DNA of 64,000 bases from Albugo candida (Eukaryota). The notes beneath the pieces were generated by a model. That model was not told the DNA's origin, ran no database searches, and saw nothing but the letters and a program-made list of their open reading frames with translations. This document shows, in pieces, positions 1,617 to 51,500 of this stretch; positions within the stretch are counted from its first letter, which is position 1; each line of letters starts with the position of its first letter. Where the stretch lies: positions 310,001 through 374,000 of the forward strand of contig JBDOQK010000023.1 in assembly GCA_040437565.1 (NCBI GenBank), written 5' to 3'. Position numbers and translations under genes: made by a program.

Positions 1617-3952
1617 TCAACACAATTGTGCTCCATCGTCGCTATCTTCCAAGTCATCAAATGCGCTGATATGTGCTGCGTGAGACAATTTGTCAAGACC
1701 TGTCAATTCTTCCAGATATGTCGCTGAATTGGACGCATTTTGCAAAAACTCAAAAGCGTTCGAGTGAAAAGCTTCCAACACTTTATCGCTGCATGCAATG
1801 CATTTGTCAAAAGCGACTCCCACGACCGGAACGACGCTGAAGCTGTTTATATAACCACGAAGCTGATGTGGTATGTAGCCTAAAGCCTCTGACGTGTGTT
1901 CCACAACGTCTCCTCTTTGGTCGGGTGAATGTAATACTGCGACTAAAAGTTCCACAGCGTTAGCTGAAGCTATCGGTGCGACGCCAGGACGTGTCACTGT
2001 ACACATTTGATCGAGTGTGCGATCTCGAAGAGAATTGCGAGGACCGACGATATCGTTGCAAAAATAGCACCCTAAACGGACACTGGAGGTCCCATCAGAA
2101 TGAATCGTTCGGATTCCATGACGCATGACCAAATAACTGTCGAAACCCAATGCTGTATTGATGACAATCTTTTGCTTTGATGCTCCAAGCACAGTTGGGA
2201 GCCATCGACTTTCCCGTGAGTCTGTGCCAAGAAATATCACATCATGCGTATCGATGAGACTTTCGAGTTGCGCTAAGCCTTCTTTTGCTTCGCGTATTAG
2301 CTCTGTATTGCTGAGGGAATGGCCGGCCATGGGAATGCTGAGAATTTTTCCTTGAGCATTTACTAATGGAAATATACGCTTCAGTGCAGCTGCGGCGCAT
2401 TCTGCTTTGGGTTTACCACAATCCTGGAATTCATACAAAGGCTGCCGAACGGGATTGGAGTAACTAACCGTGGAATTATCGACTAAAGTGATGTGTCGAA
2501 ATCCCCATGAAAGTAAGCTTCTAGCTGTGAAGCATCCAAGAGTCCCGGCACCCAAAAGGAGGCATTTCGTGGATGCAATTAAATCGAGTTGAAGCGTGGG
2601 TAATTGTCGCCATCGCATCAATTTGAGATTTAAATCAACAGAAGTCTCTGCGAGACGTAAAGGGTCCATCTGATTGCTCAGATCCATCACCCGGGGTCCA
2701 AACTTTCCTCGTTGATTGCATTCCCATCCTACCACATCAATATCTTCCAAGTCGGGCTTCATTCGCTCGGGTATAAGTACTCGAAAAATCAACGAATTTG
2801 AGAAGTTGTCAAGATTTGTATCGTGACCACAGCCTTGCATTCCATGTTCTCGAAAGGAAAAGATCTTCAGTGGTTTTGAGATATCAAGAATCTCGTCGGG
2901 TAAGGTGCTGAGGAGGGCTAAATAATTTCGCAGCGGCCAGCCTGGATGAGAAGGCAAGGCGCACGGATCGACGAATCCGTAGTATACATCGACTTTTGCT
3001 TCGTCAAGACCGTGTCGTTTCTGTCGTGTTTGTTGGCTTTTCCACGTACAAAAGTCATAGACCTTTGGATTCGTGCCTTCTAATTCCGATCCTGAACCTC
3101 GAAAGCATTGTATCACAAAATAGGGAACGATTTGCTGCTTTGTTTGATTCTCGCTATTTGTATATTGCAGATGCATCAGATTCTTAATGACAATCCTTTG
3201 CTCCTTCTGCGTGAATTCCGTACTTGCAGGTGTCGGTGGTTCTGAGATTTGATACGGAGAGGCTGGACACAGCGCAGGGAAGGCGAACCAGTACAGAAAT
3301 GTGTGCTTTTTGAGTTCCGCAAATGTGCACAGAATAAATCCGTTCAGTTGCAACGAAAGCGTTTCGATACTGCACGCCGGGTCGGTTATAATCTTCAATA
3401 TCTACAGATCGGATGAGCGAAATGATAGTAAAGCATCATAAGAATTTGTGTATACTTTATCTTTGGCCAATTCTAAAAGTTTGCCCTTATCCAATGCTTT
3501 GAATTGCTACAAATGTGCGCCAATTAGACCCTTTTTTCATATCATTTGACAAAAGCTTCCCACTTCCAATGTATTGGAGTTATACAAAGTTCCAGCTACT
3601 TTCCAATGATATCGCTCCATGTCATTCTCGCTATGTAGCAAGCAATAAGACGAAGACGAATGATTCGGTGGATTGACACTCACTTATCAAAAGAAAACGA
3701 ATGAGCATTGACTTTGATCCGAGCCGGAACGTTCGGTGATCGGCCAGGACCATAGAATCCAGTAATGGGCTGTACGTTCAAAGTATTGGATTGAGATTCA
3801 CACTTTAATCGCTGACCGTTTAGACTTACTTGAGGCTCATCGTTCAATTGAAACTGATCTACCTTCAATGAAGCAAGCTTATGCCAGAAAGTCGGATCGG
3901 CCACACTGCTCCAAGGCTGAAATTGGAGCAAACTCTCCTTTTTCGATTCCAT
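1617..3952 (-). CDS. ATG7: Autophagy E1-like enzyme ATG7 (multi-exon)
   Basis: N-terminal exon LLQFQPWSSVADPTFWHKLASLK, then FVDPCALPSHPGWPLRNYL, VDLNLKLMRWR, CLLLGAGTLGC, VSYSNPVRQPLY, DSRESRWLP, LGCYFCND and catalytic LDQMCTVTRPG. Short GT-AG introns near 3770-3829 and in 3400-3700. Confidence 0.96.
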
Positions 3953-7489: not shown

Positions 7490-10240
7490 CTATGCAACAA
7501 ACTGAAAACCGATTGGATGCAGTAAAAATGTTTCTCTCAGCTCCTGGCAGTTGGGAATAAGTTCTAGTTTTGGGTAGATAGACATATTCGTTGAATGCGA
7601 TCGCACAATTCCTGACCGCACTAATCGATCACATATACGCGAGAACGTTCGAGTAATTGGCACTGGTGTTATCGCTCGTGTTTGACATAAGAGTCTAACA
7701 CGGTGAAGGACGTCTTCAAACCTCACTAAATGTTCAGAACGGCATCGTAATTCCATCTCCAAAGCTAATAGAAACACACACTCAAATTTGCTCGTATCAC
7801 GTAATCGAATGCTCATACAAGATTTTGAAATTTGATTCCGAGCTTGTTGTACATCGTCCAAGCTTACACAAAGTTCTTTGGGCGCAATAATTGACTCGAC
7901 ACTTTGTTCAAAACGTTCGATACATATTTGTATTGCCAGTTTACACACCGACAGCACACGTCGGACATCTCCTGATGATTGTGCTAGCGACTTTGCGCAG
8001 TACTGAATTGCGGATAAATCGAAAACATTTAATTGTTGGAGTCGGTGGTAAATGATTTGACTTAGTTGATCACTTGAATACGACCGGAACGAGATACGAT
8101 GGGATCCTAGCCGACTTTTTATTTTCGGTGCTAAACGTTCAGGAAGATCCATCGTGTTTGCGATACCAACAATGATGAGTTTTGAAGTTTCGTAGGTTTG
8201 CCATTCCAGTAGATTGTATAATACCATGCTTTTTCCAATTGCCATGAAATCCATTTCGTCCAGAATCAATACAACGATAGGTCGTTTTGCATTCCGAGTT
8301 GAAAACTCTTTTTGCAAAAAAGCGCAGGCGTCGGATGTCTTCTTAGTCATACTCTTTGTGTACTCTGAAAGATTTTGACGAAGAATATCATAAGTTAAGC
8401 TTACACGAGTCAGTTGTAATCCATTGAGTTCTAATGCGATGAATTCCGGTAAATCATTAGTCTCTGTTTCTTTTTTCAGCGTATGGATGATCTCACGAAC
8501 AAGAGAGGTTTTGCCCATGCCAGGAAGACCACTGATGTATATAGGAGCTCCTTGACCATTTGCAGAAATGGCATTTCGAATGGACTGAAAAATTTCGAAT
8601 CGTTCCTCCTCTCGTCCTACCATCATGCAGGGTGCAGAGTAAGGTTGCAGCTCTTCGCAAGCCTTTTGCAGCTTTAGACACAATTCATCATGCATTTAGA
8701 TTATTGCTCGACACGCAGAGATGGTCGAATGTGTACCATTAGATTGTATTAGAAAGGTACTGTACTGTCGTTGTGGTATCGGTCCATCTTATGCACAGTA
8801 AGACAGTAGGAATGGAGAGGATCTATAGGAATGGATACTCGCAAATCCGTGGCTAAATGTCTTTGGCGAACAGAAGTACGCATAGTTACATCTTACTCGC
8901 ACTGATCTACAGATAAGGTTTCATTATTTCACAGCTGAGATGAAACACATGGGGCGGGGTTGAATATCAGGCGATGTTTAAAAAAGAGGCTCCTACGGAA
9001 AGAATTGCTTTGTTAATAGTTGAGGAATTGCGCCTGGCGTCCTGACTCCTTATTCCAGGGACTCATGGAAATCTTCTTTCATTATTAGTTTACTTTAGTG
9101 GGAAAAGACGCTTTCGTAAGCGTCTACGCTGTGTGCATCAAATTCGCTNNNNNNNNNNNNNNNNNNNNNNNNNNNNNNNNNNNNNNNNNNNNNNNNNNNN
9201 NNNNNNNNNNNNNNNNNNNNNNNNNNNNNNNNNNNNNNNNNNNNNNNNTTGACCATTTGCAGAAATGGCATTTCGAATGGACTGAAAAATTTCGAATCGT
9301 TCCTCCTCTCGTCCTACCATCATGCAGGGTGCAGAGTAAGGTTGCAGCTCTTCGCAAGCCTTTTGCAGCTTTAGACACAATTCATCATGCATTTAGATTA
9401 TTGCTCGACACGCAGAGATGGTCGAATGTGTACCATTAGATTGTATTAGAAAGGTACTGTACTGTCGTTGTGGTATCGGTCCATCTTATGCACAGTAAGA
9501 CAGTAGGAATGGAGAGGATCTATAGGAATGGATACTCGCAAATCCGTGGCTAAATGTCTTTGGCGAACAGAAGTACGCATAGTTACATCTTACTCGCACT
9601 GATCTACAGATAAGGTTTCATTATTTCACAGCTGAGATGAAACACATGGGGCGGGGTTGAATATCAGGCGATGTTTAAAAAAGAGGCTCCTACGGAAAGA
9701 ATTGCTTTGTTAATAGTTGAGGAATTGCGCCTGGCGTCCTGACTCCTTATTCCAGGGACTCATGGAAATCTTCTTTCATTATTAGTTTACTTTAGTGGGA
9801 AAAGACGCTTTCGTAAGCGTCTACGCTGTGTGCATCAAATTCGCTGTATTTGAGACTCCCACGGCTATGCTCAGTCTGCCGCTATTCAGTTTCATCTATT
9901 TCCCACATATTAGCACCAATGCATCTCTTGATGCATTCATCCAAATGGCATGTACCGTCAATCGCGAATTAGAATTTCAGTCTTGTGCTCCTATATTTGC
10001 AGAGGAAAGCACGGATGCCAATGTGTTATCGCAATACTACAAAGCATAACAGACCTTGAAGCGAACGGATGGTAACTGCTCCATAAAGAAGCAACTATAT
10101 TAGTGTAGAAATTGCGAAGTACCTCCAGTATGTTTAGTCCGACAAAACGTTCACGGCTTGCATACTCCCAGTCGTGTTCTAAGCTGTTACACAAATAATG
10201 CACGTGTAAAGCGAAGATCATCTGTAAATCATTCAATTGG
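7490..10240 (-). CDS. ORC1: ORC1/CDC6-family AAA+ ATPase (most like ORC1); upstream exons uncertain
   Basis: Exon 7490-8695 has GREEE, Walker A IYISGLPGMGKT, Walker B VLILDEMD, VLYNLLEW, IANTMDLPERL, SRLG and SGDVRRVL. The 5' exons are confused by the gap duplication. Confidence 0.8.
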
Positions 10241-33023: not shown

Positions 33024-36000
33024 TCAATTTGTACTATTATCGACAAAACCTGCTAATTTAAAATCGTAGTTGCAGTTCATTTGCGAATTCCTGGTGATCA
33101 ATACGGCATCTCCCGTAATGCTGATCATGTTGTAGACTTGATTCCGATACAAATGACTGGACTCAATGGGAACCAAACGGAATGAGAGCATTGCGTTCCC
33201 ACCCAGCGCACGAACGTGAGCCCGCACAATTGCAATTGCTTCATTGAGGAAGAGGTGATAGAAAGCCCCCAAGCCCCCACTTTCACGCACACTCCAGCTT
33301 TCTTTTATAAAATGGAGCGTCACACGACCCAAGTACTGCACAACTCGAGCGTTAGCGATGTGGGACAACGGCGTGAGCTCAATCCATTCAGTTCCATCCA
33401 TCTCAACCATTCTTGGCTCAGCAGAAAGCGTCAGATGTTTGGCGACTGCCATTCCAACTAACGTGATCTCAATCTATAGAGCAGCATTCAATATTATATT
33501 TTAAGCATCAAATAATTGTACCATGGTTTCGGATGCTACAGACACCCGCGTTTTGAGCCCACAAATAGCACAGGGAGCGTAGGACCGCAATTTGAATACG
33601 AGACTAAGCCATCGTGAGTACAGGCGTCTGAGGATTGTGATTCTGCGAGTACCTGGAGAAAAGATCTTTGAACACTCGCGATAGCAATTCGTTGAGCCGT
33701 GTGTCACGCATTCGATCCTCTTCCCATTCGACGCGTTTCATGGCCACAATCAACTGGATATTTTCAGCCGCGAGAAAGTCGCCTTCCAGACGATCTGTGC
33801 TGCAGAGAGAGACTCCCTACACAGCTTTCAGCATAATATTTACAGTGATGGACGCATGATCACCTCGGGAAGTGATTGTTCCAATAGTACAGACATGAGA
33901 TCCTCATCGGTCTCATCGTCAATTTCCAATACGAATGTCTCCTTGTCATCGTGGATGCCTTCTCCGAAGATCTCCTCTTCGTCTGAAGTTGAGTCGGACA
34001 CAGAATTTTGACCAGGTAGCTGGGTACAATGAGTCAAGCTACATGACACACTGTTTCTGTGGACAAGCCGAGTGTCTGGTGATTCATCAACTAGGCGAGT
34101 ACGACTCTGATTAAGCTACAGATCGGGCTGTTATGATGAGAACACCCACACTAAACCTTCCAACCTTTTCTTTGTTGCTTGTACTCAACGCTTCAATCTC
34201 ATTTTGGAGACTCACTAGCCGTCGATCTTCCTCGTCTTTGATCTAAAGGCGTAGTGAGCGGTCATAATTGTGACGGGTTCTCAAGTACCTCGATATTCCG
34301 TTCAATTCGAAGTGTTGGTGGAGATGGCAATGCAGGTAGATGAAAGCCCGTTCCAGTAATCACGCCAACGATTAAAGCTCCTCCAATCTACGTGCATCCG
34401 TTAAGACCTATAACATTCGCCATGGGTCACTATACCTGGATCTGTGAGTCGAAGCCAAACATTGCATTCATACCCAGAACTTTCATTTTTACCGAGAGCT
34501 GTCAGCGAGGAAAAAGACTTTCAATGACTGCGTCTGACATGATTAGGCATACCTGTCGATATAGCTCATATTCTACAAAAGGAAGCGCATCGGAGATGAT
34601 GGTCGCATTAGCGTCGCCTGTGCTTTTGCGTCGCTGACGGCAAACTCGAGCTTGAACGAAGCAACCCGACCCGACAACTGCTAATCCAGATGGAGGTTCG
34701 ATAGAAGCGAGTAACATCTCTGGAACCCATTTGTTCCTGCAAATTCCGCAGCGAACCATCCGCATGCTGCAAAGAAGCGTTAGCTGACATCAACGTTAAT
34801 TGATCAAGAATACTTTGAGAATGGAGCAACAGATCGAGAGTACGGAATATGGCATGAGAGACACGGTGTTGTCGCCGGAGGGAACGGAGGCAGGTTTGGA
34901 ACGTCACTCCCGTTGGTGTTGGTGTCTGGCAACTGGGTCATCCAAGTAGATGATTTTTTGGGGCTTTTGAGTGTGGCTGCGGTGCCCCTACACGAGCAGC
35001 GCGTTATAGTGCGAGATCGATAGTTATGACGCTCGTACGTGGCTGAAATGACGCAAACATCGTCGTGGATAGTGCAGGATTCCGCATACCCAACAACGAA
35101 AGGGCATTGCAATAAAGTTGCATGTGATCGGATCTACGATAGACTATAAGCTTTAATGAAAGTAAACTCGTAATGTACCTCGTCTCGTAATTCCAGCCAC
35201 CAGGAATCTCGTGTCTCCTGATCAGCGAGCTTGGTAGCAAGTTTACCCAAATACTTGACCGATCGAGCGCTTGTAATTCCACCAAGTTGGATGCGAGTCG
35301 ATGCGTCAAAGCTTTTTAATGTAATTAATTGAACATCGTCTTGCATGGAAATGTGAATCGGCTCCGCAGCCGAAGCCTTGGGCGTTCTAAGATGCCGTTT
35401 TTTTGCTTGAGGTGACCTCATCTCGAATCTCTCGCTGGGCAAGTTGTCTGTCGTTCCAAGCATCGATGTATCCTCTGCGTCTATGCCTTCTTCCTCGGAA
35501 GAAACCGATTTCACCGGAATAATGAAACAAGCAGTCCCACAGGCTCGTGCTACAAGCCCACTGTCCCCTTCAACGTCAAAAAACTGCTTGTACGCCAGCA
35601 CAGCATTTCCGCCAAGCTCTAGTGCTTTTTTTCCAACCTTAAGCATATCGTATGAAAGAATTTGCAAGAAATGGTATTTCGCATACCATTGTGACGACTT
35701 GTGAGGAGAGTTTATAAAGGAGAAGCTGGCGGTATTCATTGCTTTTTCTCGATGTACGGAAGCTATCACTCCAAGAGTACTCAGGATCCGCATGAACGAC
35801 AAGTTCCTCGACGAAACCGAGTATTTTCTCAACACGGTACAGATTGTCTTGTAATGTAGAAACACCAAAGAATTGAACGCCCGCAGAGGATTCCTGAAAA
35901 AAAGGATTCACATCGCCAAAGTAATTGAGACGCATCACGAGACTCAATTCTCCGCGAACGCCCAGTAGAGTGTCGTAGAGTGGGAACCAGCCATGGAGGA

Positions 36001-38760: not shown

Positions 38761-40888
38761 GTTCCTGATGCTGTCACGACATACTTGACACAGGGAAAGA
38801 AAACTAGCATATCTACTTATTCATTCTACAACTAAATAAGAAACGCTTTACTCCACACAGCAATGTTGTGTAGTTCACGCATTCATATGACTGCGTCATC
38901 ACATCTTCAACATTTTCCACTTTAGGGCTTCATGGTAGTGAAGACATCCTAATCGTATTTCTTGCAAATTGCAAGATTAGCTTCACCATAGTGAGCGATT
39001 AGCTGCTTAATAAAGGATTTCGAATCACAGAATCAGCATTTTTGAAAACCTTCCGCGCACTCTGGTCAATTCACCTTACCAGCTTGAAGACTATCGCAGG
39101 AAGGCTGCCGTCTTCGCTTACTATAGCTATACATGGTGCCCGATAAATCCTTTACTTTCTCCTAGTTCAACATTGCTGCTCACCATAGAACTATGATAAT
39201 GGTGCGCTACGACCTGGAATCCGTCATTTTAGATGTAGCTAGCTCGGAGGCTGTCACGTCTTACCCGTGAAACGCGTTATAGCTAACGTGCAGCTCCTGT
39301 CGATGGTCATGCATCCACCACGTCTCAAATGCTCGGATAGATTAAAGCTGTTGATAGGTTGTGGTAAGAACTGTTACACAAAATTCCATATGTCAATACA
39401 CTTGCCATTATGTATCAGCAATCCAACAATTGATCGCTGTAAGACTACATTCGGGAATTTCTTCTTCAAACAAAATCTCACTACGGTGCATCTATTCTGC
39501 ATAAATCGAAAACTTAGGGAAAAACTACATTGGGTGCAGACGGATTATTTGTTCGCACCATTCGTGCTCCCATTTCAGTGTGTTTGTGAAGGAAGCTTCA
39601 GATCTGATCCCTACATCAAAATCATCTATATCGCATCAGCGCACACTTGACCGTAAAACAGCAGCCTCTAAAGGTGTGATATCCTACTTCAACTCGTGCT
39701 TCCGAAATAAGCTTGTAGCTCACGCGCCATCGCCGTTTTCAATGCTGCACGACTCTGACTAAGTAGAAGCAGCTGATGATATTATTGAAGCCTAGACGAG
39801 TAATCACGTTGGTGTTTTTGCTTAATTGGTTCCATTCAGATTTTATGGGTTTTATTGAGATGGATTGCAAATGAAGGTTTCGCAGATCTGGTGGAGGATC
39901 AAATACTTGGATTCGGATGAAGTGTGATCGGTGCTGTTTCGTACTACCTGATGCATGGTAGCGTCATAATAAGCATAAGATCTCAGATTTGAACCTTTAT
40001 TTCAGATATGAGCAGTGAGGTACTTGATGATGATTCTAATCAAGTTGACAGCGTCGTCAGTATCATAATGAAACAGAAAGATCGATTTGAACAAGGCTAC
40101 CGCTCCTATTAATTTGAATTAGCGGACTGACTGATCAGTTGACTCTCATTTCGGGTAATGATAAGGTAATTTGACACTGGTCATGATGATAATAGGCTAT
40201 ATAAAGGATCATCAAGCAAATGATTGCCAAGGAAAATTGGTGCAGTGCTAGCCCCAGAGGTCTCCAGTCAAAGATGATTGATTGAGAACTATTGATAGTG
40301 CAGTCAAGTAGCCGAGGGATAATAGAAAGCAGAAATCTATTTTTTGCGAGACGGATCGCCACCTTTCATAAATCAATTTCCAATCGCTAGCAGCTGGCAG
40401 CCTATTTTGAACTAGAGACGATTACTCATTTGGAATGGAATTGTGTACCGAAGGCTTTTTGTGCGATTGTAGTACGCACACTTTCTTTTGCCGGCGATGT
40501 TACAGCTGATTAAAAATATTTCATCACATTATTGCCCTGTGATTGCATACCAGCTTGCACTGCCTCTTTCCGAAAATACAGTTACGGCAAGCTCTTGTTA
40601 TATCTCTTGCATGATCGAGGTAATATGCAACAAAGTGACTGAATTCATATCTTTCAGGAGCTTGCGGCAGTTTGATAAACAGAGATGGCAGCCCATCTAC
40701 AGCCGCTTGAGCACATGAGGGATTCTTTGCTGTGAAAGCTGTCAAGTAGTCGACATTTTGTACTTGACATTTTCGACACTGGCCTGAAAATTTCGATTCA
40801 AAATTTCTCAATAAAATTGACTGGTTCTTGTAAACTCTGAAATTATAAACCACATTTGAGGAAACTAAAACAAACACATCGATCTACC

Positions 40889-43218
40889 ATGAAAATGCCC
40901 ATCGCTCTCTCAGCTGTCGTGAGTCTTAACCAGGGACTCCATATTGACGCGTACAAAATCCACACACCAGTAGGACATAATTACCGACAGCTTTCTCGCT
41001 CTCACAAATGTCTCCAACGTTTTGCCCTGTACGCCAACCTTACGTATGTTTTGACGGAGCCCAATGCGAGAGGAAGAAAGACGCATGATGATAGGCTAAA
41101 GATGGTTGCAGAAATCGATAATCATATTCCGTTTTGGAGCGTCCAGGATAGCTGCTTAAGCACAATTTGCGCTACTCACACAATTATTCTCAAAGATGAA
41201 AGAAAACGATTTCACAAAACTAATCCCTCATCGAGTTTGGATCTCCATTCTGGCGCTCATTTGGTCGTGGATGAAGAGAAACGCAACGATAAAGTTAACG
41301 ACGAATCAAACGAGGTATCTATTTCTGGGACTGATCTGATTGGAAGAGGCAGCAATGATAGAAGGGATAGTGTCACGGAAGAATTTCGATCTCCTGATAA
41401 TTGGAGGAAAAAAAGAAATGATAATGAATGGAAGGTTGCTCACAAGAAATTCCGACTATTTGGTGCTACCTTTGATGTAATGAGTTACGATGCGTCGAAT
41501 ATAGCAAAGAATATGAGCGCTAATCCGGATGGAAAAAATAGCTTTCATCAAGGCTACGATTCATTAAAGCAGGCTTCAACTGCTAAAAATGTTCTGGTCA
41601 GTACTAATAACCGAAACGATGCTCTTAAAACACTCCAAATCATTGGGGCTACTGTACATAAACAGAACGACATTCCCACATTCACGTCATATTGTTTGCT
41701 ACTGCAAAAAATTTGCCCGAATTATTCATTCAAGCTTGCCTTCGATGTTTGGATTTTAGTGACATTGATGTGAGATACTCGATCACAGTATCAACTCCAA
41801 AAATTTTCCAATTGGCGCTGCAGTACGCTACAGATAAAATTCCTTCTATGATCATGCTAAAATGCGGCAACACGTGTGGTTCGATCAAATGGGGATCCCA
41901 GAATGATTGTTTGCTAATATCTTTGCATCAGGAAATAAAAGATAGCTCCTCCGTAGACTTGCAGCTGTGGACCGGGTACCCCTACCAGCGAAATATTGTT
42001 ATTTCCGAGGTGCAGGCAAATGAATGGACGGGGTTTCACTATTCAAACATGTCAGTCAAACACCTAAAAGTGAATGCGCAAAATTGTCGAACATGTATCC
42101 AGCACACTGTTGAACCGCTGATAGGGTGCATAGACGCAAATGAAGAGATCTTTTCATGCATGACCAAACAACACACACATGCCAATAAAATTGACTTCAG
42201 AAATAAGTGTTCGTCAACCGAGGGTCCGTGCGAAAAAATTACGTCCGAAAGACAAGTAAGCGAAAGATTGTTTACCGTTCCCTTGGTCTCGTTGCCTTCA
42301 AGTGGCCAGCCCGAAGGAGATATTACAGAAAACACATGGACAACCCGATATCAGTGCATGTATTTCATGCCAATCATCAGAAAGAAGCCTGAACGCGATG
42401 ATTACTCAACCGGCAAATCAAAGATACGCTCGGCATGCTTGTCTTGTCTGTTAGGAATCCTTGGGGGGTCTGTGAAGGTTGATGAAGCTCTGATGAAGAT
42501 AGTAAAAAAGGTTCAGCCAACTTCATACAAGAGTAATCTCATCTTTTTCAATACGCATGTAGATGTGCAAGAATCCGCAATCAAATGTTGGGATTTTTGT
42601 ACGTGGGTGTCAGGTCTCTCCGATCCTATGTGTAATTTTTTGGAATCTATGATTGCGAAAGAAAGAACGCCAGTGAGAGAGGTCCAAGAAATCCGGTCGG
42701 AAAGATCGGAGAATGCGAACGAAAGGACGCGTATGCCTGGATCAAGTCATGGGCTTACAGCAGAAATCCCGGTAGGACATTTCTCCACATCAAGCCATTT
42801 CTTTGCACATCCTGGAGTGGAACCAGATAGAATAAAAGGTTCTTTGCAAAACGCCGTCGATGATCTCAGTGCTAGGTCATCAAATGACTTGATCTGGTTT
42901 TTGCAGTTCGAAACGAGAGCTGCTGATAAAGAAGCATTCAGGAACTCGGCATTTTGCATCGCAGCAGTCAGCAATTCCTACGTTGTGTCATCAGTATCAT
43001 TGTACATTCTGACGACTCCTTTCAAGTTGACACATGTACTGAACTTGTGTAATTTACATACTCATTTCGGGATCGTTCATTACGAAGCTATAGAAATAGG
43101 CTTGCTTCCACAGCCTTTGAATTTTCTAAGCGCATTGCAATCTATTGGGATTAGTGAGTATAATCCTCCACCTAGATCTCTACTAGAGAAGCGAAGTAAT
43201 AAAATGGACCTTTTTTGA
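40889..43218 (+). CDS. CHxC/CCG-type Albugo secreted effector-like gene, broken by one frameshift (~776 aa if repaired)
   Basis: Signal-like N-terminus, then (S)HKCL, CLRCL, CRTCI and CLSCLLGILG (CxxC-x5-G). The two ORFs join by adding one A in the A-run at 41706-41711; the paralog is in frame at that point. Confidence 0.72.
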
Positions 43219-44682
43219 AGTAGGAAGTGCTTTAATAATGTAAAAGTGCATTATTATACCTGTTGAAGGTGTCTATACTACTAGAAATTAACTAACTGAC
43301 TTCTCTAGTCGCCTAGGTTATCTTAAAAACATACATACATATGAAAAATACGTTTCGTGAATATATAGATGAGACATGATAATATGTCTGCTCGTTGATA
43401 GTCCTGTAGTGCATAGCCTCAATCACCACGATACGAGATATGTCCAGCATGTAAATGATAGAAAGCTGTGAATATTGTCCAAAAGTACAAAGTTTTGCAA
43501 AGGGGTGTGCGCCACAATACGCTGAACGTAGCCATCCAACTAAGACTAGGATACGAGTTGCACTTGCATGGTGACTTGTCTATTTCGTACCCGCAGCAAC
43601 GATTTTCGACCCCTGAAAAAACTGCCGAATGATCCTTACATTGCGAGTTGATCTAGTGCCTTGAGAAGCCGAATGCGTTCGTCTTGATCGTAATTACCGA
43701 ACGTGCGCACCAACCGTGGTCTTGATCACGGAAAGCGGTGAAATTGTCGGAGTTGCTGACCGCTGACCGCTGACCGCTGAACGAACAAAACGACGATTCC
43801 GATCTGTCCAGACGAAGTGCAGCGTCACCGCTTGCAATGCAAGCCATAAATCTGATATAATATGCTGATATTCTTTCCATGCCGGCCGTATTGCTGGCAC
43901 AATTGCACATACATTATGCGTCCAACGTGGTCGAGAGGAGAGAAATTGATCCCATCTAGGGAGTAACTCCCTCCATAACTGTGCCGTGTGATCGCATTCT
44001 AGAAAGAGATGTTGATAGGATTCCATTGCCCCACACGAAGGCTGCTTGCACAATATAATGTCGGGCTGAATATCCTATAAGAACCAGAAACAAGATCGAA
44101 CTGGCAGTATGCAGAAAGCCAGACGAAACTGCAAATCTTCGAAAATTGGCAATACACGTTTTTGAAATGCCGTGATGTAGCCATGAACGTGAGAACTCGT
44201 TAGGAATCCAGTGCATCCGATCTCTCCCGTGATGACCAATGTGTTGACATCGGATGACTCTGGACTGGTTCGGGAGGTTTCCAGACGATTCGTGAGAGTT
44301 GTGAGCGTGAAATAGATGGAAAATAATGTTTCCTTTCCTTGCTTTTTACTCCCACATAAAATGATCTGCCACTTGTGGTTGGTNNNNNNNNNNNNNNNNN
44401 NNNNNNNNNNNNNNNNNNNNNNNNNNNNNNNNNNNNNNNNNNNNNNNNNNNNNNNNNNNNNNNNNNNNNNNNNNNNNNNNNNNGCGGTAATGGTCCTGTA
44501 AATACTTTTTCAGTCGGATGTTGAATTCGCCAAGCGTCTACCACACCCAACTGTGAAAGCCATTCCAAACACGCTAATCGACTTGGTTCGTGTCGAATTG
44601 TTCCACTCGAAGCATCGATAGCTGGATCGCCTGTGGTTATGCCCTCCGCTACCTGCTTCAACGTCTACCCAGCTGCCCGCTT

Positions 44683-44866
44683 TTCGCTGCTTGACAGCTG
44701 TACTTGCCGTCGCACCCACCGTAGCATTCGACCAGACGTCCGCATGAACCTCGCTACGACGTACCCCGCCTACCTGCAAGACGCGAGGCACCTGCCGAGC
44801 CCGCACTTCGTTCACCCCGCCTGCCTCTACCCGCTCACTGCAACCCGCGAGGCGCAGGCCGAGCTC
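44683..44866. repeat. 184-bp GC-rich repeat, copy 1
   Basis: Identical to 47208-47391 but with a different upstream flank. Confidence 0.8.
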
Positions 44867-44966: not shown

Positions 44967-45188
44967 GTCAACGTCGGTGGCATACACCTGCGCGTCCATG
45001 ACAAGGAAGGGAACCGTGCCACTGCGACGTTTGGTGGGAAGGCATCCTTCACGGAGCCAGCTGTTACGAGGGAATCCTTCTGCGATGGGACGGTTACATC
45101 CGCTCTCTCGCTAGCAGGTCTCCAGGGAGATGCAGACCCGAGAATGGCCAGCGTGGTGCAGCACATCGTGGTGGCGACGAGTTTTTAA
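44967..45188 (+). CDS. 3' part of an ORF resembling the RNAP beta'/RPB1 C-terminal region H
   Basis: Own translation ..KEGNRATATFGGKASFTEPAVTRESFCDGTVTSALSLAGLQGDADPRMASVVQHIVVATSF*, compared with RPB1-type GGLTSVTRHG..GALMRCSFEETVEILFEAG..DD..GVSENVILG. Confidence 0.55.
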   Translation, partial: VNVGGIHLRVHDKEGNRATATFGGKASFTEPAVTRESFCDGTVTSALSLAGLQGDADPRMASVVQHIVVATSF

Positions 45189-45388
45189 AACATGCTAGCG
45201 GCGCTTAGGTAGCGCGATGACGTAGGAACGCTTGCCTGAGGGTGGGTTAGCTGGCCCTGCTGGTTGAGGCTCTGAGGTCTCGACGCTTTGCAGGGAAGTC
45301 TTAGCCGAGAACTCGGAGGGAGCGACGTCCTCGGGGTCCTGGTCTGGCTCCTAGTGTTCGACCGACTCCTTCTCCTCGACGTTGACGT

Positions 45389-45848
45389 ATGCAGGCGACC
45401 TCGATCACAGCGAGACGCCTGCATACGTATGAGCTGAGTGAAGTCGACAAGCTGACTCTGCAACTGGCGAGGAGCAACACGTCGATGTCTCAGTATGCGG
45501 TGAGTCTGCGCAACTGCATTTCGGGGAAGCGTGGGTGGCTCAAGTACGGCTGCATGGGATTTACATCGCTGGGCACCGCGAGAGGTGTCGCTACGTGCGT
45601 CTGGACCGATCCCTACTTCGAGGTCTGGCTACCTTCTCGCTGGGCGGAGAGGATGATGGTGCCCATGCGCTTGGAGGAAGGCGAGTACACGTCTCCATAC
45701 TACAGCTGGCGGAAGGTAAGGGAGGGAGACTACGCAATCTTGTCGCGGTGCCCTGTCCTCTCGCATGAGTCTGTCAGATGTGTACGTCTACGGTTCTGGA
45801 ACGAACCAGCGATTGGAGTGCATCCGGAGTACTGTGCACCGCTGAACC
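45389..45848 (+). CDS. Divergent RNA polymerase beta'/RPB1-like subunit (regions B-D), cut by a gap at the catalytic motif
   Basis: SLRNCISGKRGWLKYGCMG..TARGV (cf. [22 protein letters not shown]), REGDYAILSRCPVLSHES (cf. D.VLFNRQPSLH..S) and AIGVHPEYCAPLN (cf. the segment just before NADFDGD). Confidence 0.85.
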
Positions 45849-46109
45849 NNNNNNNNNNNNNNNNNNNNNNNNNNNNNNNNNNNNNNNNNNNNNNNNNNNN
45901 NNNNNNNNNNNNNNNNNNNNNNNNNNNNNNNNNNNNNNNNNNNNNNNNTAATCCTTGCCGACTCCACGCCGATGTTGCGACGATACTCCACGATGCCCCC
46001 GTTCAGGCAAACCAAGCTAGTCATCTACCCGGTGTCCCACGCTACGCCCACTTGCAGCATGTACGTCGGCTTCGTCACCCCCTGCAACCGATCTGCGATG
46101 TCCTTCTCG

Positions 46110-47204
46110 TCAGCCGCAACCATGTACGGCACTCCACGTTCCTCGAGATAGCCTTTTCGATACCCTCTCTCGCAATACGGTGGCGTCACAGTGTGGGCGG
46201 AACCAGGTGTCCGACGCCGTAATCTTCGAGCCTGGTCGCATCGTCGCTGTCCCCTCCGACACAGGGTGGTAGACGATCGATCGAGTCGGGAACAAGCCGT
46301 CCACGTTGACCCGCTCGCTGACGACTATGCCATCCTCGTAGTTGTGACGCATGTTCGCGAAGACGACGAGAAGGGGAATGCCTGGGACGGAGAGCGGTCT
46401 GTCGGTTGGAAGTTGCTCGATGACTTGCTGCATGAAGGGTGTTCGAACGACGGGAAGGTAGGTCGCAGTCGAGGCAATCGTCGACGTCAACTCGACACGT
46501 GGTTTGCAGATCGCTTGCGTGCATATGGACGATGCGAGGCCTGGTCTCGGTGGCTCATCGTCGGCGAAGAAGGGGAAGAGGTGGAAGAGCGTACGGCTGT
46601 TGTCGCGGATGTCTGCGCGAGAGGCTCTCGGGACGCCAGTGAGCAAGAGCAGCATCGCAGGTGTGTTGTAGCAGAGCGAGTCGACCCATGCGAACTCGCT
46701 GGGTGACAGGCAGGGCACACGCTTCAGCAAGCAGCCGGACATAGCGTGAAGCAGGACAACCTTTGCGGGCTCGAAGACGTCTAAGCTGGGAGCGTTACGC
46801 GAGTCAAACGTTCGCCAGGTGGACAGCAGAGACGTTACGCAAGCATCCGAGATTCGAACAGACTTCGACGAGAAGCAGAAAAGCCAGGTCTTCTGTTCCG
46901 CCACACGAGCGTCTTTGTGCACCTCGCCGAGTAGCTGCCGTGTCTGCTCACACGTCTCAGCGGTGAAGCATCTGTACATGCAGCCGTGCACGACGGAGCG
47001 AATGCGTCCCGCTTCCAGTCAGTCGCGGGAGGAAGCAGTGCAGAGGGAGGGCGAGTAGCTGCAGGCCCAGCTGTGAGAGTCGACGCAGGCAGTGCTAGGC
47101 CTTGAACTACTCAGCAAGAATAACCGTTGGGGCGTGTGTGATGCATAGCGCTTCGCACTTAATTTTTTTCAGCGACCAACGTCTCTCAGCCAGTACGTCT
47201 CGTG
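46110..47204 (-). pseudogene. Divergent RNA polymerase beta/RPB2-like subunit fragment
   Basis: FPFFADDEPPRPGLASSICTQAI (cf. IPFPDHNQSPR..QSAM.KQAM), LPVVRT, and PGIPLLVVFANMRHNYEDGIVVS..DGLF (cf. G.N..VA...GYNQEDS...RGLF). In frame upstream is ETYWLRDVGR*KKLS (cf. ETPEG..CGLVKNLS), with two stops. Confidence 0.85.
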
Positions 47205-47207
47205 TGC

Positions 47208-47830
47208 TTCGCTGCTTGACAGCTGTACTTGCCGTCGCACCCACCGTAGCATTCGACCAGACGTCCGCATGAACCTCGCTACGACGTACCCCGCCTACCT
47301 GCAAGACGCGAGGCACCTGCCGAGCCCGCACTTCGTTCACCCCGCCTGCCTCTACCCGCTCACTGCAACCCGCGAGGCGCAGGCCGAGCTCNNNNNNNNN
47401 NNNNNNNNNNNNNNNNNNNNNNNNNNNNNNNNNNNNNNNNNNNNNNNNNNNNNNNNNNNNNNNNNNNNNNNNNNNNNNNNNNNNNNNNNNNCATTCGACC
47501 AGACGTCCGCATGAACCTCGCTACGACGTACCCCGCCTACCTGCAAGACGCGAGGCACCTGCCGAGCCCGCACTTCGTTCACCCCGCCTGCCTCTACCCG
47601 CTCACTGCAACCCGCGAGGCGCAGGCCGAGCTCCCGAGTTTTTGAACACGCATGTCTCTGCCTGCTCACTGCAACCCGCGAGGCGCAGGCCGAGCTCCCC
47701 TCTTCTTCACCCTCGACCCTTGCTTCACCGAAACCGCGAGGCGGCAGCCGAGCTCACCCCGACTTCACCCACGACCCTCGCTCACGCCTCACCACTTGCT
47801 CTCGAACCCAGCTAACCCGCCTAACCCCCT
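47208..47830. repeat. 184-bp repeat copy 2 plus iterated CGCGAGGC-N4-5-GCCGAGC motifs
   Basis: Motif copies at ~47549, 47613, 47676 and 47735 in a C-rich tract. Confidence 0.75.
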
Positions 47831-48554
47831 TCTCGCCTGGAAGATGTCAGACCTGGCCCGGTAGTCGCGCACAGTCTTCAACGTCTGACCATCAATCAGA
47901 GGCACCGATGACTTGCTTGTACGCTGAAACGCCTCCATCAGGTACGCGTCTTGCAGCACCTTCGGGATGGGGATTGGCGGCTTCGAATTCGCAGCGAGGA
48001 TAGAGAGAACCCTCGTAAGTGCGTTGAATCGATCAGACAAGCCNNNNNNNNNNNNNNNNNNNNNNNNNNNNNNNNNNNNNNNNNNNNNNNNNNNNNNNNN
48101 NNNNNNNNNNNNNNNNNNNNNNNNNNNNNNNNNNNNNNNNNNNCAGCACCTTCGGGATGGGGATTGGCGGCTTCGAATTCGCAGCGAGGATAGAGAGAAC
48201 CCTCGTAAGTGCGTTGAATCGATCAGACAAGCCCGACTGGTAGCTCCGGCACTCCCTGCTTTCGACTGCATCCCTTACGCAGGTGACCAGTCCGATGATC
48301 ATCGCGGAGAAGAGTTGCATGTTCTGCGTGTACCTGAGTCCCCGCGTTGGGCCGTCCCCGCACACAGATGTCTCTGACCCCGCTGTTGAGACGAAGTCTG
48401 GTGCACACCTCCCAGGCGACACATCCACCAGCGCGTACTGGATGTCTCTCGTCCTCGTCTCCAGATCCGCTAGCCTGTCCATGATGCGCTCCTGTGTCAA
48501 CGAGATCTTGCTCACCAGCGTCGATATCTTGCGAATCTCGTTCCTCGCCGACAT
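47789..48554 (-). CDS. Orphan ORF of the foreign insertion (~190 aa after collapsing the gap overlap), N-terminal coiled-coil-like segment
   Basis: MSARNEIRKISTLVSKISLTQERIMDRLADLETRTRDIQ...; the gap flanks 47955-48043 and 48144-48232 are duplicates, so the frame is continuous. Confidence 0.55.
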
Positions 48555-51500
48555 GTGAGCAGATCGTCCCACACACATGCTGCAGGAGTGGTGTGTGAAA
48601 TCACCAAATACAATATGTGTTGCGGTCGATTTAAAAGTGTTGGAAAGCAATAACTCATAAAAACCCACTCGTTCCTCGGCCGTGACCGGTGCATATACAT
48701 TGTGAATATACACCGGTGCATCGTGAATGAGAAGACGCAAAACCAAATAACGATTTCGAATGCTTCGTTCGGTAAGTTCTTCAGCTGTTGAGTAACCGGG
48801 AAANNNNNNNNNNNNNNNNNNNNNNNNNNNNNNNNNNNNNNNNNNNNNNNNNNNNNNNNNNNNNNNNNNNNNNNNNNNNNNNNNNNNNNNNNNNNNNNNN
48901 NNNTTGAAAAAAGTTGTTTTTTCGAGTTGTTTTTACTAAATTGGCGGGTTATTTAGTAGCCGGCAAATTAAGAAGTGCCAATCACAGCTCAAAAAATTAT
49001 ATTGTTGCTAAATCGCCAGAACTGGCGAAGCAGCAAATAAAAATTATACCTTTCGCGCAGCCGACCCCACGTGGTGACATTTTTCAGCGTATCAACTGGA
49101 AGATCTCATATTACACCCTTCGGAGAGTATTTGAACAGGTTAGTTTATAATATTCCTTTGTTTTTTCCAATCACTACAGTTTCACAATGACAGCTAGAAA
49201 AAGCTCGATGTCCAATGGCAACCGGCGCGAACCCATGCTCCTCTACTTTTATTACTAGATATATCAACAAATAATAAATAATTCTATAAAAAACGATTTT
49301 TATAGAATTATCAGTCACCTTTCCAACATCCTAATCTCTAGAGTGTCTACTATTAACCTACCATATACAGATATCAGAAAAAAAACGTACCTACGCTAGA
49401 GCAATACAACAAAAACAGCGGAAGAAACAGAATGAGCTCGTGTACAAAAGTAGACAGGTGAGCTGATTGGCTAGCGTACTTAGCAATAATTGAGCTGCGA
49501 TTGGTTAGATCAATTGTCTGTGGCCGTAGTATTAATGTCTGTGGCCATAGCGGCTCCCTAATGCAAATGAAGGTATTGCAATAATTAATAAAATCAATGC
49601 TGGAATACTAGTCCAAATACCGGGACACATCAAATTGCGGATCTTAATACACAATCCTTTACGTCTAATGAAAATAAAGACACCATGTACACTGGCATCA
49701 AGATATTGCGAGTTCAGCGGATGCTGAGAAGTAGCCACGTCTCCCAGCTACGAACGGAAATGTATAAGTCCTGAAGAATCCGGTATGAGCTTGCGTGCTA
49801 TTAGACACTTTTCTAAGGTAGTGTTGACCGTATTCGTCATTCAAATCACTCTCACGACCAAACCGACATATGTCGTCAAAAAGCGTGAGAAGCGCCACAT
49901 TGACAGGCCCAGTAAATTCGCGGGCTATTCAGCACAAGAACAGCGACGATTGTTTCCGCATGTTATCGCAATCTGGATCTTGGCTTTACATCCTTACTCA
50001 GGAAATCATTCAAACAGTACAGGACACCATGATGATATAATTCGAACGGTTCTAGCTGATTCTTCCGGCGCCTAGATTGAGGTCTGGATCAATCTACCCG
50101 TATTCGATAACAAATTACAGCTCAAGAAGTCTCCTGCTAATTGAATTGGATACTCAAGATGATAACACGTCGCTATTAATGGTCACGGCATGGTGTCAGG
50201 CAAAAATTGAGCAAAGTCATCATAGTTATAGAAGAACTGAATCAGCTGGATCTCTATCGTGTTAGCCAACAACAAAACTTAAAAGTCTATGAATTCAGCT
50301 AGAAGTAGCACTACTTGTTTTCGGCCTTTCACAATCTTCCATGAATTAATCGACTGTAACCTGGTAGCAAGTAAATTATTGTCCGGACGATGTCAGTGAA
50401 TACAATGGAAGGACTAATCTCCATTTAAGTTGCTTCCAAAAGAAGATTAGAAGACGCACGTTTGCATTTGTCCTGAATGGTCTGCTGTCTGCGTATTTTA
50501 AATTGATTGAAAGCGCCAGACGAAAAGATATTGTCAAGTCGATAACGACTTGTGTCATAATAGTGAGTCTCCAGTAATTTATCTCCGTCATGAAAACCGA
50601 TCCCGATGCAGCTGTAAAGTTTACTTCCATTTCACAATCATAATCAAGTGGAATCATTCCAGTTTCTACTACCCTTATAGAAGTAAAGCATCATCGATCG
50701 TTGCTGCGAAATTGCGGTAAGCTCATCGAAACGTAATCGTAGCACTTCATATTGAACCCAACTACATAGTTCATCTTCATTTTTACCCTTGATGTTGGTC
50801 TGCTCAAGGTACGTATTTTCTGTGTCACGGTGCCAAAAAAAGTTCTATGTGAGACCCCAAAGTATGTATTTTGTAGAATTTTCGCTCTATAAAATAAATG
50901 ATGTTCAAATTGATGGTGACACAAAGGAGCTTAGTAGAGAAATATGGGTGCTTCAAAATACTTGGCGTAGATTGTATCTTCCTCAGAACAAAGCTAGGAT
51001 TTGCAGATTTGTGTCAAGAGCCTACTTCTACATTACAATGGAATTTCATCTTATGCTTTGATCTACCTTGAGTGCTAAGGAGAATCGGCTTTATAACTCA
51101 TCATTCTCAGTTTATTATTTTAAGATCTTTCTGATAGTCGACGTGACTATTTTAATGGAGAGCGAATAGAATGAGCTGGATCTTTGTCAAGAGCTTCCCC
51201 TCCCAATCCTTGACGATTTCCAACTGCTGGTATACCGGGTTAGTCAATCTCAAGTGCCTATGTATGCCAGGTTTTATCGAAATTAATTTCCGAGGCGTGC
51301 TAATTGCACCACCCATGATATTCAGCTATACAGCAATTGATCACCCGGAAAATTGAATCAACGTCGTCTCTACAAATGTTGTAGTCATCTTTTATTTAGT
51401 TAAGTAAAAATCCAATCGTCGCAAAGATCATTGAATATGACACTAGAAGCTTCATCGGCTGAGAGGATAAGGCAAGCGACTAAGAAAGCGGATCAAGAAC

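Follow-up and report, generated by a model that had tools for sequence, protein, structure and literature searches.

The open reading frame (ORF) that begins at position 45389 of the window, by which we mean the whole 64-kb stretch of DNA analysed, is very probably a real, 5'-truncated and rearranged relic of a mini RNA polymerase gene from a compact DNA element, and not a native gene. The source would be a DNA element of ~17–28 kb carrying a family-B DNA polymerase, a D5-like primase-helicase and a two-subunit mini RNA polymerase, the latter made up of a beta'-like subunit of ~600 aa and a beta-like subunit of ~814–850 aa. The window would hold a rearranged copy of such an element in repeat-rich host DNA, with beta' running from codon 93 (45428 on) into a gap and beta codons ~251–543 lying on the opposite strand (47018–46140). 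The ATG at 45389 would be a chance in-frame start codon in unrelated flanking DNA. The window feature itself is of an ordinary kind, a relic that is truncated and then interrupted by an assembly gap, and "gene relic" is the annotation it should receive, since its appearance as a "minimal subunit" is an artefact of 5' truncation and a scaffold gap.

The homologous part of the ORF is a beta'/RPB1-like gene fragment at 45428–45847 on the plus strand, which corresponds to residues 93–232 of the 604-aa protein P0002 with 139 of 140 residues identical (tblastn, E = 8e-92). P0002 was also the best match of the translated ORF, window residues 13–153 aligning on P0002 residues 92–232, and tblastn found no other part of this protein, residues 1–92 included, anywhere in the 64-kb window. 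A profile of 26 family members, run with filters off over all six-frame segments of the window, gave a single match at 45428–45847 (profile positions 85–224, E = 1.4e-62), and profile positions 1–84 had no match in any of the six frames across the whole window. Searched together over the six frames of the 64 kb, the beta' and beta profiles gave one match each and nothing else at E < 0.1. The fragment spans a region C-like segment (GKRG...RGVA) and an RCP motif resembling NRxPxLH, and its last residue is the N of NLDFDGDE.

Taken alone, the 153-aa piece falls short of recognition: its Pfam match to RNA_pol_Rpb1_2 (E = 0.0053, 17.4 bits) lies under the 25.3-bit cut-off, and phmmer against the PDB returned no RNA polymerase and chance matches only (E 0.17–1). 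The beta'-like identity proposed in the earlier note is nevertheless firm, because of its relatives, with E = 3e-92 to P0002 and, in an HMMER search that went exhaustively through 1.84 billion representative proteins, 70 family matches at E ≤ 1e-3 (45 at E ≤ 1e-10).

Both landmarks on which the proposed start was based, the ATG at 45389–45391 (+) and an in-frame TGA two codons 5' of it (45383–45385, +), are read directly in the sequence, and the frame stays open for 153 codons, to 45847. As a real start, however, 45389 fails. Alignments to relatives begin at query residue 13–15, the relatives' N-terminus is 79 residues longer than that of the window ORF, and homology sets in abruptly at 45428, therefore the start is not the native one. 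The 13 codons from 45389 to 45427 (+), the ATG among them, read MQATSITARRLHT and have a counterpart in no relative (P0002 reads ...LSDPSSP ahead of Y93); they are flank, not gene. A perfect 13-nt inverted repeat occupies 45385–45428, with arms at 45385–45397 and 45416–45428 and 18 nt between them. Its right arm ends at the first homologous base, 45428, and the ATG falls within its left arm. The search of the window for such repeats gave two matches, where 0.02 would be expected, and none of 100 shuffles reached two.

The suggestion that 45190–45388 is a frameshifted 5' extension is excluded, as profile positions 1–84 are unmatched in any frame. Judged from the sequence, the first 92 codons are absent and not shifted into 45190–45388, and with them the N-terminal Cys/His module (region A) is absent from the window copy according to the six-frame profile.

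At its other end the frame runs into a scaffold gap of 100 N (45849–45948) which covers the catalytic motif; base 45848 is the last before the gap and the final codon is the Asn that opens NLDFDGDE. All 15 N runs in the window are exactly 100 long, and a run of this length conventionally stands for a gap of unspecified size between contigs. A longer listed ORF (45389–46222, 277 aa) was rejected as an artefact in which the N run is translated as X. The active-site motif had been placed ~153 aa from the ORF start, and this distance agrees with the 153-codon frame, but the motif itself is not within the window, where just its first N is present. The gap would conceal at least ~1.07 kb more of the beta' ORF, because P0074, a related protein of 477 aa, runs 356 residues past the N. 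P0074 is identical to the window ORF at all 121 shared residues and to P0002 at 459 of 477, and its sequence includes NLDFDGDEVHV and extends as far as the position equivalent to residue 588.

The next contig carries a beta/RPB2-like fragment on the minus strand (46140–47018), equivalent to approximately residues 251–543 of the 814-aa protein P0110 (E = 1e-186, 95% identity) and matched by a five-sequence beta profile at positions 256–555 (E = 3.4e-146). It is bounded by stops, one at 46110–46112 and one directly upstream of 47018, and its similarity to beta stops short of the conserved GDK..HGQK motif. No significant similarity was found by tblastn in 45949–46139; a frameshifted beta tail suspected there by eye was rejected, the best tblastn match to residues 535–814 (E = 0.018) being the end of the main match. 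Another protein, P0117 (289 aa), is identical to the window beta ORF at 287 of 289 residues. The longest contig of P0074 and that of P0117 are both 4664 nt, which points to another assembly in which the relic is covered from end to end. The orientation of the relic, with beta' on the plus strand followed by beta on the minus strand, C-terminal side first, is that of two element contigs from soil metagenomes (L059 and L060), so the window may hold one collinear copy, which would have lost the 5' part of beta', an internal segment and part of beta.

Elsewhere in the window, intron-free minus-strand ORFs with strong Pfam matches encode an ATG7/ThiF protein (1617–3398), a Cdc6/ORC-type AAA ATPase (7490–8695) and a C2CD5 YbjQ-like domain (35134–35868). 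The relic lies among five short contigs of 383, 882, 1443, 552 and 660 nt between 44484 and 48803, and the pieces from 44967 to 47391 form a GC island, at 58–61% GC versus 41–45% in the rest of the window. The GC-rich flank 5' of the beta' fragment (44967–45427, 59.7% GC) is on the same contig, and all four public sequencing runs compared have contigs that join it to the fragment; it matches neither subunit gene and none of the ORFs of L059 and L060. The flanks share the GC of the fragments and could themselves be element DNA.

The beta contig ends in a repeat, R (47208–47391), with identical copies at 44683–44866 and, over 142 nt, at 47492–47633. R is multi-copy in the runs, its summed contig depth reaching 35 against ~5 for the fragments in run X1. 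Contig ends overlap, 44725–44866 being the same as 47250–47391 and 47492–47633, and 47954–48043 the same as 48144–48233. Both 44484–44866 and 45949–47391 lead into 47492 onward, therefore the order of the small contigs in the scaffold is uncertain. A minus-strand stretch at 44485–44664, on the contig that also holds the R copy at 44683–44866, looked LINE endonuclease-like by eye, and a weak zf-RVT match was found at 43697–44074. This setting fits an element relic lying within, or invaded by, retrotransposons. Physical continuity is demonstrated with repeat R only, and chromosomal placement otherwise rests on the scaffold, as no contig joining the fragments to a unique host gene was seen among the contigs of the four runs.

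Such a setting could also arise from a defective free element, a rearranged and deleted episomal copy misthreaded into the nuclear scaffold via the shared repeat. This would account for flanks that resemble the fragments in GC (59–61%) and not the remainder of the window (41–45%), for contig-end overlaps that make the assembly graph ambiguous, and for the absence of a bridging contig reaching a host gene. We consider it unlikely, however, since R, with which the beta contig ends, is found again beside the LINE-like stretch seen by eye, with the weak zf-RVT match nearby, and since the fragment contigs have low, equal depth within each run and there is no second close copy over 45428–45700.

The junctions of the relic recur in public data. 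Of the words sampled from the 882-nt contig, at least half are present in each of 14 public runs, among which no RNA run is listed. For four runs, filed in four studies under three organism labels, the Logan contigs were compared with 44967–47391. The junction at 45428 is bridged by contigs in all four, with 0–5 differences, as is the 46140 border, and the 47018 border is bridged in three of four. In every run contigs extend past 45848, by 168, 206, 851 and 2219 nt, and in two of them the loose end continues in frame as LDFDGDEVHV. One contig per run covers 45428–45700, therefore no second close copy exists there. A more distant copy, with 15 differences in 104 nt, matches 46915–47018 in all four runs and continues past 47018. 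A frameshift within 45190–45388 or a chimeric contig at 45428 might be expected from so poorly assembled a region, in which contigs of 383–1443 nt are separated by gaps; the same junction in four of four runs from four studies, together with the lack of any window frame matching profile positions 1–84 or P0002 residues 1–92, makes either highly improbable.

Recurrence of the junction under three organism labels is also what would be seen if the host had kept the truncated gene as an exapted short subunit of ~480–510 aa, starting at ATG 45389 or at Met 45485. The frame is open over 477 residues in P0074, and the catalytic motif is intact both in P0074 and in the loose ends. Against this, such a protein would be without the module of invariant residues C62, C68, G70 and H71, and all that the locus retains of beta is a stump of 293 residues with a stop on either side. 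Differences between the runs in the beta' piece amount to six letters in five codons, giving C55F, R84H, A86E, G143L and one silent change; the ratio of four replacements to one silent, a small sample, is consistent with relaxed constraint, and G143 belongs to the conserved IGVHP. Furthermore, 139 of 140 residues are the same as in the intact form, so the frame may still be open just because it is young. We therefore regard an exapted subunit as quite unlikely, and the truncated relic of an element gene as the better account. The relic in the window is probably dead: lacking the N-terminal Cys/His module, and with no intact beta at the locus, this copy would be non-functional.

The protein family to which the relic belongs is far better defined than the window piece. 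Full-length matches are mostly 580–615 aa long, and all ten full-length members scanned matched Pfam RNA_pol_Rpb1_2, nine of them above 25.3 bits. In an alignment of 26 sequences an N-terminal C-x2-H-x2-C-x-G-H motif is conserved, with C62, C68, G70 and H71 invariant and H65 nearly so. D234, D236, G237, D238 and E239, the catalytic loop with its three Asp (D-x-DGDE), are invariant in 26 of 26. The same holds for R144 (in RGVA) and for R199 and P201 (in R-C-P), around which positions vary, and further downstream for R366, G408, Q424 and D428. Another cluster, P0003, carries NLDFNGDE, which is counted among the signs of decay. Searched against the PDB, the family profile matched archaeal Rpo1N and eukaryotic RPB1 at E ~1e-19, with the catalytic Asp triad at residues 234–238 in the family versus ~456–462 in Rpo1N.

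The profile alignment places GFTSLGTAR of the window opposite GKRVDFSSR of Rpo1N, and SRCPVLS opposite NRQPSLH. The altered motifs described in the earlier note (GKRVD to GFTSL, NRQPxLH to SRCPVLS) are thereby borne out, and as the changes are common to the family they are lineage traits, not damage to the window copy. The same distinction between copy and family divides two further claims. The N-terminal zinc clamp is indeed missing from the window copy, but the family keeps a short Cys/His motif. Of the choice between a streamlined enzyme and a decayed 5' end, streamlining describes the family and not the window copy, in which the 5' end is missing and not frameshifted.

Evidence for the fold comes from the intact 604-aa relative P0002 and not from the window piece. 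AlphaFold2, run on the family alignment, gave a P0002 model with a mean pLDDT of 80.7 and a pTM of 0.79, and each of the 50 best Foldseek matches of the model was a structure entry with a multisubunit RNA polymerase in it (E ≤ 2.7e-8). VIA-align superposed 405–545 residues, and 430–545 for RPB1, A190 and NRPD1, with model residues ~19–604 involved and Z scores of 19.1–16.1, highest for plant Pol IV NRPD1 (Z 19.1) and 16–18 for Pol I A190, Pol II RPB1, Pol III C160 and vaccinia Rpo147, and the targets were covered over essentially their whole length. The structure prediction and superposition that had been proposed as a check thus recovered a largest-subunit fold of RNA polymerase, double-psi beta-barrel (DPBB) included, for the intact relative in place of the window fragment. 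On this model the family protein is a compressed version of the entire largest subunit, its active site at residue 234 versus ~460–480. The intact enzyme would work in the manner of other multisubunit RNA polymerases. The D-x-D-G-D-E loop of beta' would hold the catalytic Mg2+ and beta would supply the second barrel, a bridge-helix-like Q..LD.AK segment is present, and the enzyme would let the element transcribe itself.

Two contigs show what the source may look like. L059 and L060, soil-metagenome records of 23.7 kb and 20.3 kb, respectively, encode full-length members 31–32% identical to P0002, and they are syntenic and densely coded. The beta'-like gene is on the plus strand (599 aa in L059, 656 aa in L060) and the beta-like gene on the minus strand (829 and 852 aa). 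The L059 beta-like protein matches Rpb2_6 (E = 3e-11) and, weakly, Rpb2_7; its syntenic homologue in L060 is 46% identical to it, and P0110 (814 aa) has matches to both Rpb2_6 and Rpb2_7. A family-B DNA polymerase is encoded on the minus strand (750 and 741 aa, PF00136 at E ~1e-38), its nearest solved structures being archaeal PolB and Pol delta; it is predicted to be of the primer-dependent and not the protein-primed kind. A conserved plus-strand ORF of ~460 aa was tested in L059 only, where a PHROG primase match (E = 8.6e-5) and an Atlas score of 0.95 to D5_N/DUF5906 clusters mark it as a putative D5-like primase-helicase. Several further ORFs on mixed strands, without a Pfam or PHROG match, have no assigned function. 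Among the element ORFs, one of 480 aa found no usable match in Atlas, and one of 366 aa had two homologues and a model with a pLDDT of 31.6. No capsid or packaging gene was recognised with Pfam and PHROG in the 61% and 67% of the two element contigs that were covered.

Related sequences occur on 14–28 kb contigs in assemblies labelled Rhizopus arrhizus, Melampsora americana, Clydaea vesicula and Lobulomyces angularis, and in Albugo laibachii Nc14 a beta homologue annotated as a putative RNA polymerase subunit is on a 17.6-kb contig, the one with CCA27707.1. The longest contigs of the beta' cluster P0002 and the beta cluster P0110 are alike in several assemblies (17442, 17444, 17448 and 17456 nt), therefore both genes share a discrete unit of ~17.45 kb. 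Proteins of the P0114 type are likewise encoded on contigs of 17442–17456 nt. From L059 and L060, relatives 31–46% identical, this unit would be expected also to carry the polymerase and helicase. Homologues of the DNA polymerase fell into 11 clusters on contigs of 3.6–23 kb, none of 17.45 kb, in a word-based search that may miss some.

A metagenome scan with P0006 returned nothing, and L059 and L060 came from a second scan. PLSDB plasmids gave no match by tblastn. IMG/VR offered 594 candidate stretches, of which 58 code for a relative; the best of these shares 29% identity over 150 residues, and no close relative was present. The IMG/VR stretch examined, L001, carries an ordinary giant-virus RPB1 accompanied by a capping enzyme and D5.

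Reduced viral RNA polymerases with a small beta'-like and a beta-like subunit are found in baculoviruses and nudiviruses, as LEF-9 and LEF-8. Their subunit sizes are roughly similar to those of the mini family, host range and genome size being different. Pfam holds models for both LEF-8 and LEF-9, and hmmscan of ten family members against all of Pfam-A (E ≤ 1) gave no LEF match.

A closer likeness is with the 13-kb yeast plasmid pGKL2, whose K2ORF6p and K2ORF7p form a reduced, non-canonical RNA polymerase of the multisubunit type, according to excerpts of two papers (PMC6211774, PMC13348850). On the same excerpts (PMC6211774, PMC13348850), pGKL2 resembles the elements described here in combining a reduced RNA polymerase with its own DNA polymerase on a small eukaryotic DNA element, and the spacers between the conserved regions of its enzyme are shortened, as in the mini family. 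The pGKL2 enzyme, however, has beta fused to part of beta', with the C-terminal beta' regions as a separate 15-kDa protein, most of the clamp (beta'a1–a10) is missing, and the DNA polymerase is protein-primed, as far as these excerpts describe them (PMC6211774, PMC13348850). In the mini family, by contrast, beta (814–852 aa) and beta' (~600 aa) are separate genes on opposite strands, the N-terminal Cys/His module has not been lost, alignment of the model with RPB1 starts at the first residues of RPB1, and the DNA polymerase of the element belongs to PF00136, nearest to archaeal PolB and Pol delta.

Like Nucleocytoviricota, the elements have RPB1, RPB2, PolB and a D5 primase-helicase all present side by side, and vaccinia Rpo147 is a structural match to the P0002 model (Z 16.2–16.4). 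The element contigs, at 14–28 kb, are however much smaller than these genomes, given as ~100 kb and more in the text available from PMC11253617, and mini beta' is recognised for Rpb1 domain 2 only, whereas the giant-virus RPB1 piece in L001 has Pfam domains 1–5. Mriyaviruses, proposed giant-virus relatives of 35–45 kb, are likewise small eukaryote elements with a helicase-primase, but lack DNA polymerase and RNA polymerase subunits in the portion of the source consulted (PMC11253617), and the elements here have both. The window copy is also like eroded endogenous viral elements, with truncated genes that contain stops, lie in repeats and are common to related genomes, as outlined in part of PMC12455990. 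It differs from eroded giant-virus copies in that its source is a compact element and in that only ~1.3 kb is visible in the window. The unsequenced Rhizidiomyces virus, considered for comparison as a DNA virus of similar size, was dropped because a table in PMC3820453 lists it as dsRNA.

In the library of papers searched, neither a description of the mini-polymerase family nor any occurrence of the accession numbers was found, and the element family seems undescribed. We tentatively put forward, with a little less than even confidence, that it represents an undescribed lineage of self-replicating, self-transcribing elements of 17–28 kb in fungi and oomycetes, either viruses or capsid-less plasmids, with the smallest complete separate-subunit RNA polymerase (beta' ~604 aa, beta ~814 aa), distinct from the yeast killer plasmids and leaving endogenous copies in host genomes. 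The limits of the homology, the gap, the family with its fold, and the genes that surround it in relatives are shown directly, and from these we infer chromosomal integration of the window copy, the life style of the element and the enzymatic activity of its polymerase.

If this were true, beta' would preserve the layout of RPB1 from end to end in 40% of its length, a mini RNA polymerase would occur together with a D5-like helicase and a family-B DNA polymerase of the primer-dependent kind, and the lineage could be an early small relative of giant viruses or else an offshoot that has undergone drastic reduction. A beta' of ~600 aa with a beta of 814 aa would help to define the minimal core of the multisubunit RNA polymerases, and the mini polymerase would be a tractable target for structural work and biochemistry. 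Elements of ~17–28 kb would furthermore fill the size gap that separates giant viruses (at least 100 kb) from yeast killer plasmids (13 kb), and would bear on the relationship between giant viruses and cytoplasmic plasmids, as well as on the DNA elements of fungi and oomycetes.

The TGA ahead of the ATG also prompted us to consider an alternative genetic code. Freeing any one stop codon lengthened the ORFs about as expected, with none outstanding, so this candidate was set aside, and host genes such as ATG7 are readable in the standard code.

A second, more distant copy of the beta gene, matching 46915-47018 of the RPB2-like fragment of the relic (46140-47018, minus strand), was found in all four sequencing runs (X1, X7, X10 and X11), hence each of these genomes holds at least two element-derived loci. 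This copy differs from the window at 15 of 104 nt, with an identical set of differences in all four runs, and lies on contigs of at most 8696 nt, where it extends past position 47018, the end of the relic. One contig each in X10 and X11 also joined 46450 to 46540, leaving out the 89 nt between them in the beta fragment; the joining contig is part of a diverged copy, with 16 differences over 101 nt.

Short variants were present in the beta'-like protein family. P0003 and P0105-P0109 belong to a cluster of ORFs of 70-145 aa with 80% identity to residues 70-153 of the window protein. Their catalytic loop is altered from NLDFDGDE to NLDFNGDE, and they probably represent additional copies undergoing decay in related assemblies. 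In another family member, P0052 (807 aa, on a 23.9-kb contig), the beta'-like body is joined at its N-terminal end to a NADAR domain (E 5.8e-40). The family members KAG0910054.1, from a Rhizopus arrhizus assembly, and KAH9806643.1, from a Melampsora americana assembly, lie on contigs of near-equal length (14381 and 14385 nt) despite belonging to different protein clusters, which may reflect coincidence or a shared unit length.

Within the window, an inverted repeat whose perfectly matching 13-nt arms are separated by 18 nt (45385-45428) is placed exactly where unrelated flanking sequence meets the beta' homology, with 0.02 such matches per window expected by chance. The repeat may be a trace of break repair.

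Contig ends beside the N gaps were identical in sequence, both as a 90-nt stretch (47954-48043 and 48144-48233, flanking one gap) and as a 142-nt stretch (44725-44866, 47250-47391 and 47492-47633), each at 100% identity. It follows that at least one of the "gaps" is really an overlap that was left unmerged, and the shared ends indicate that the assembly graph branched at repeat R (47208-47391).

Close upstream of the GC-rich island holding the relic, two long plus-strand ORFs overlap (40856-41773, 305 aa, and 41692-43218, 508 aa); neither matched any Pfam family at E <= 5, and they could perhaps be a single host gene divided by a frameshift or intron. Surrounding the island are retrotransposon-like pieces on the minus strand (43697-44074, 44485-44664 and 48144-48803). 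At 43697-44074 there is a weak zf-RVT match (E 0.0074, under the cut-off), and two of the stretches resemble a LINE endonuclease, as judged by eye alone.
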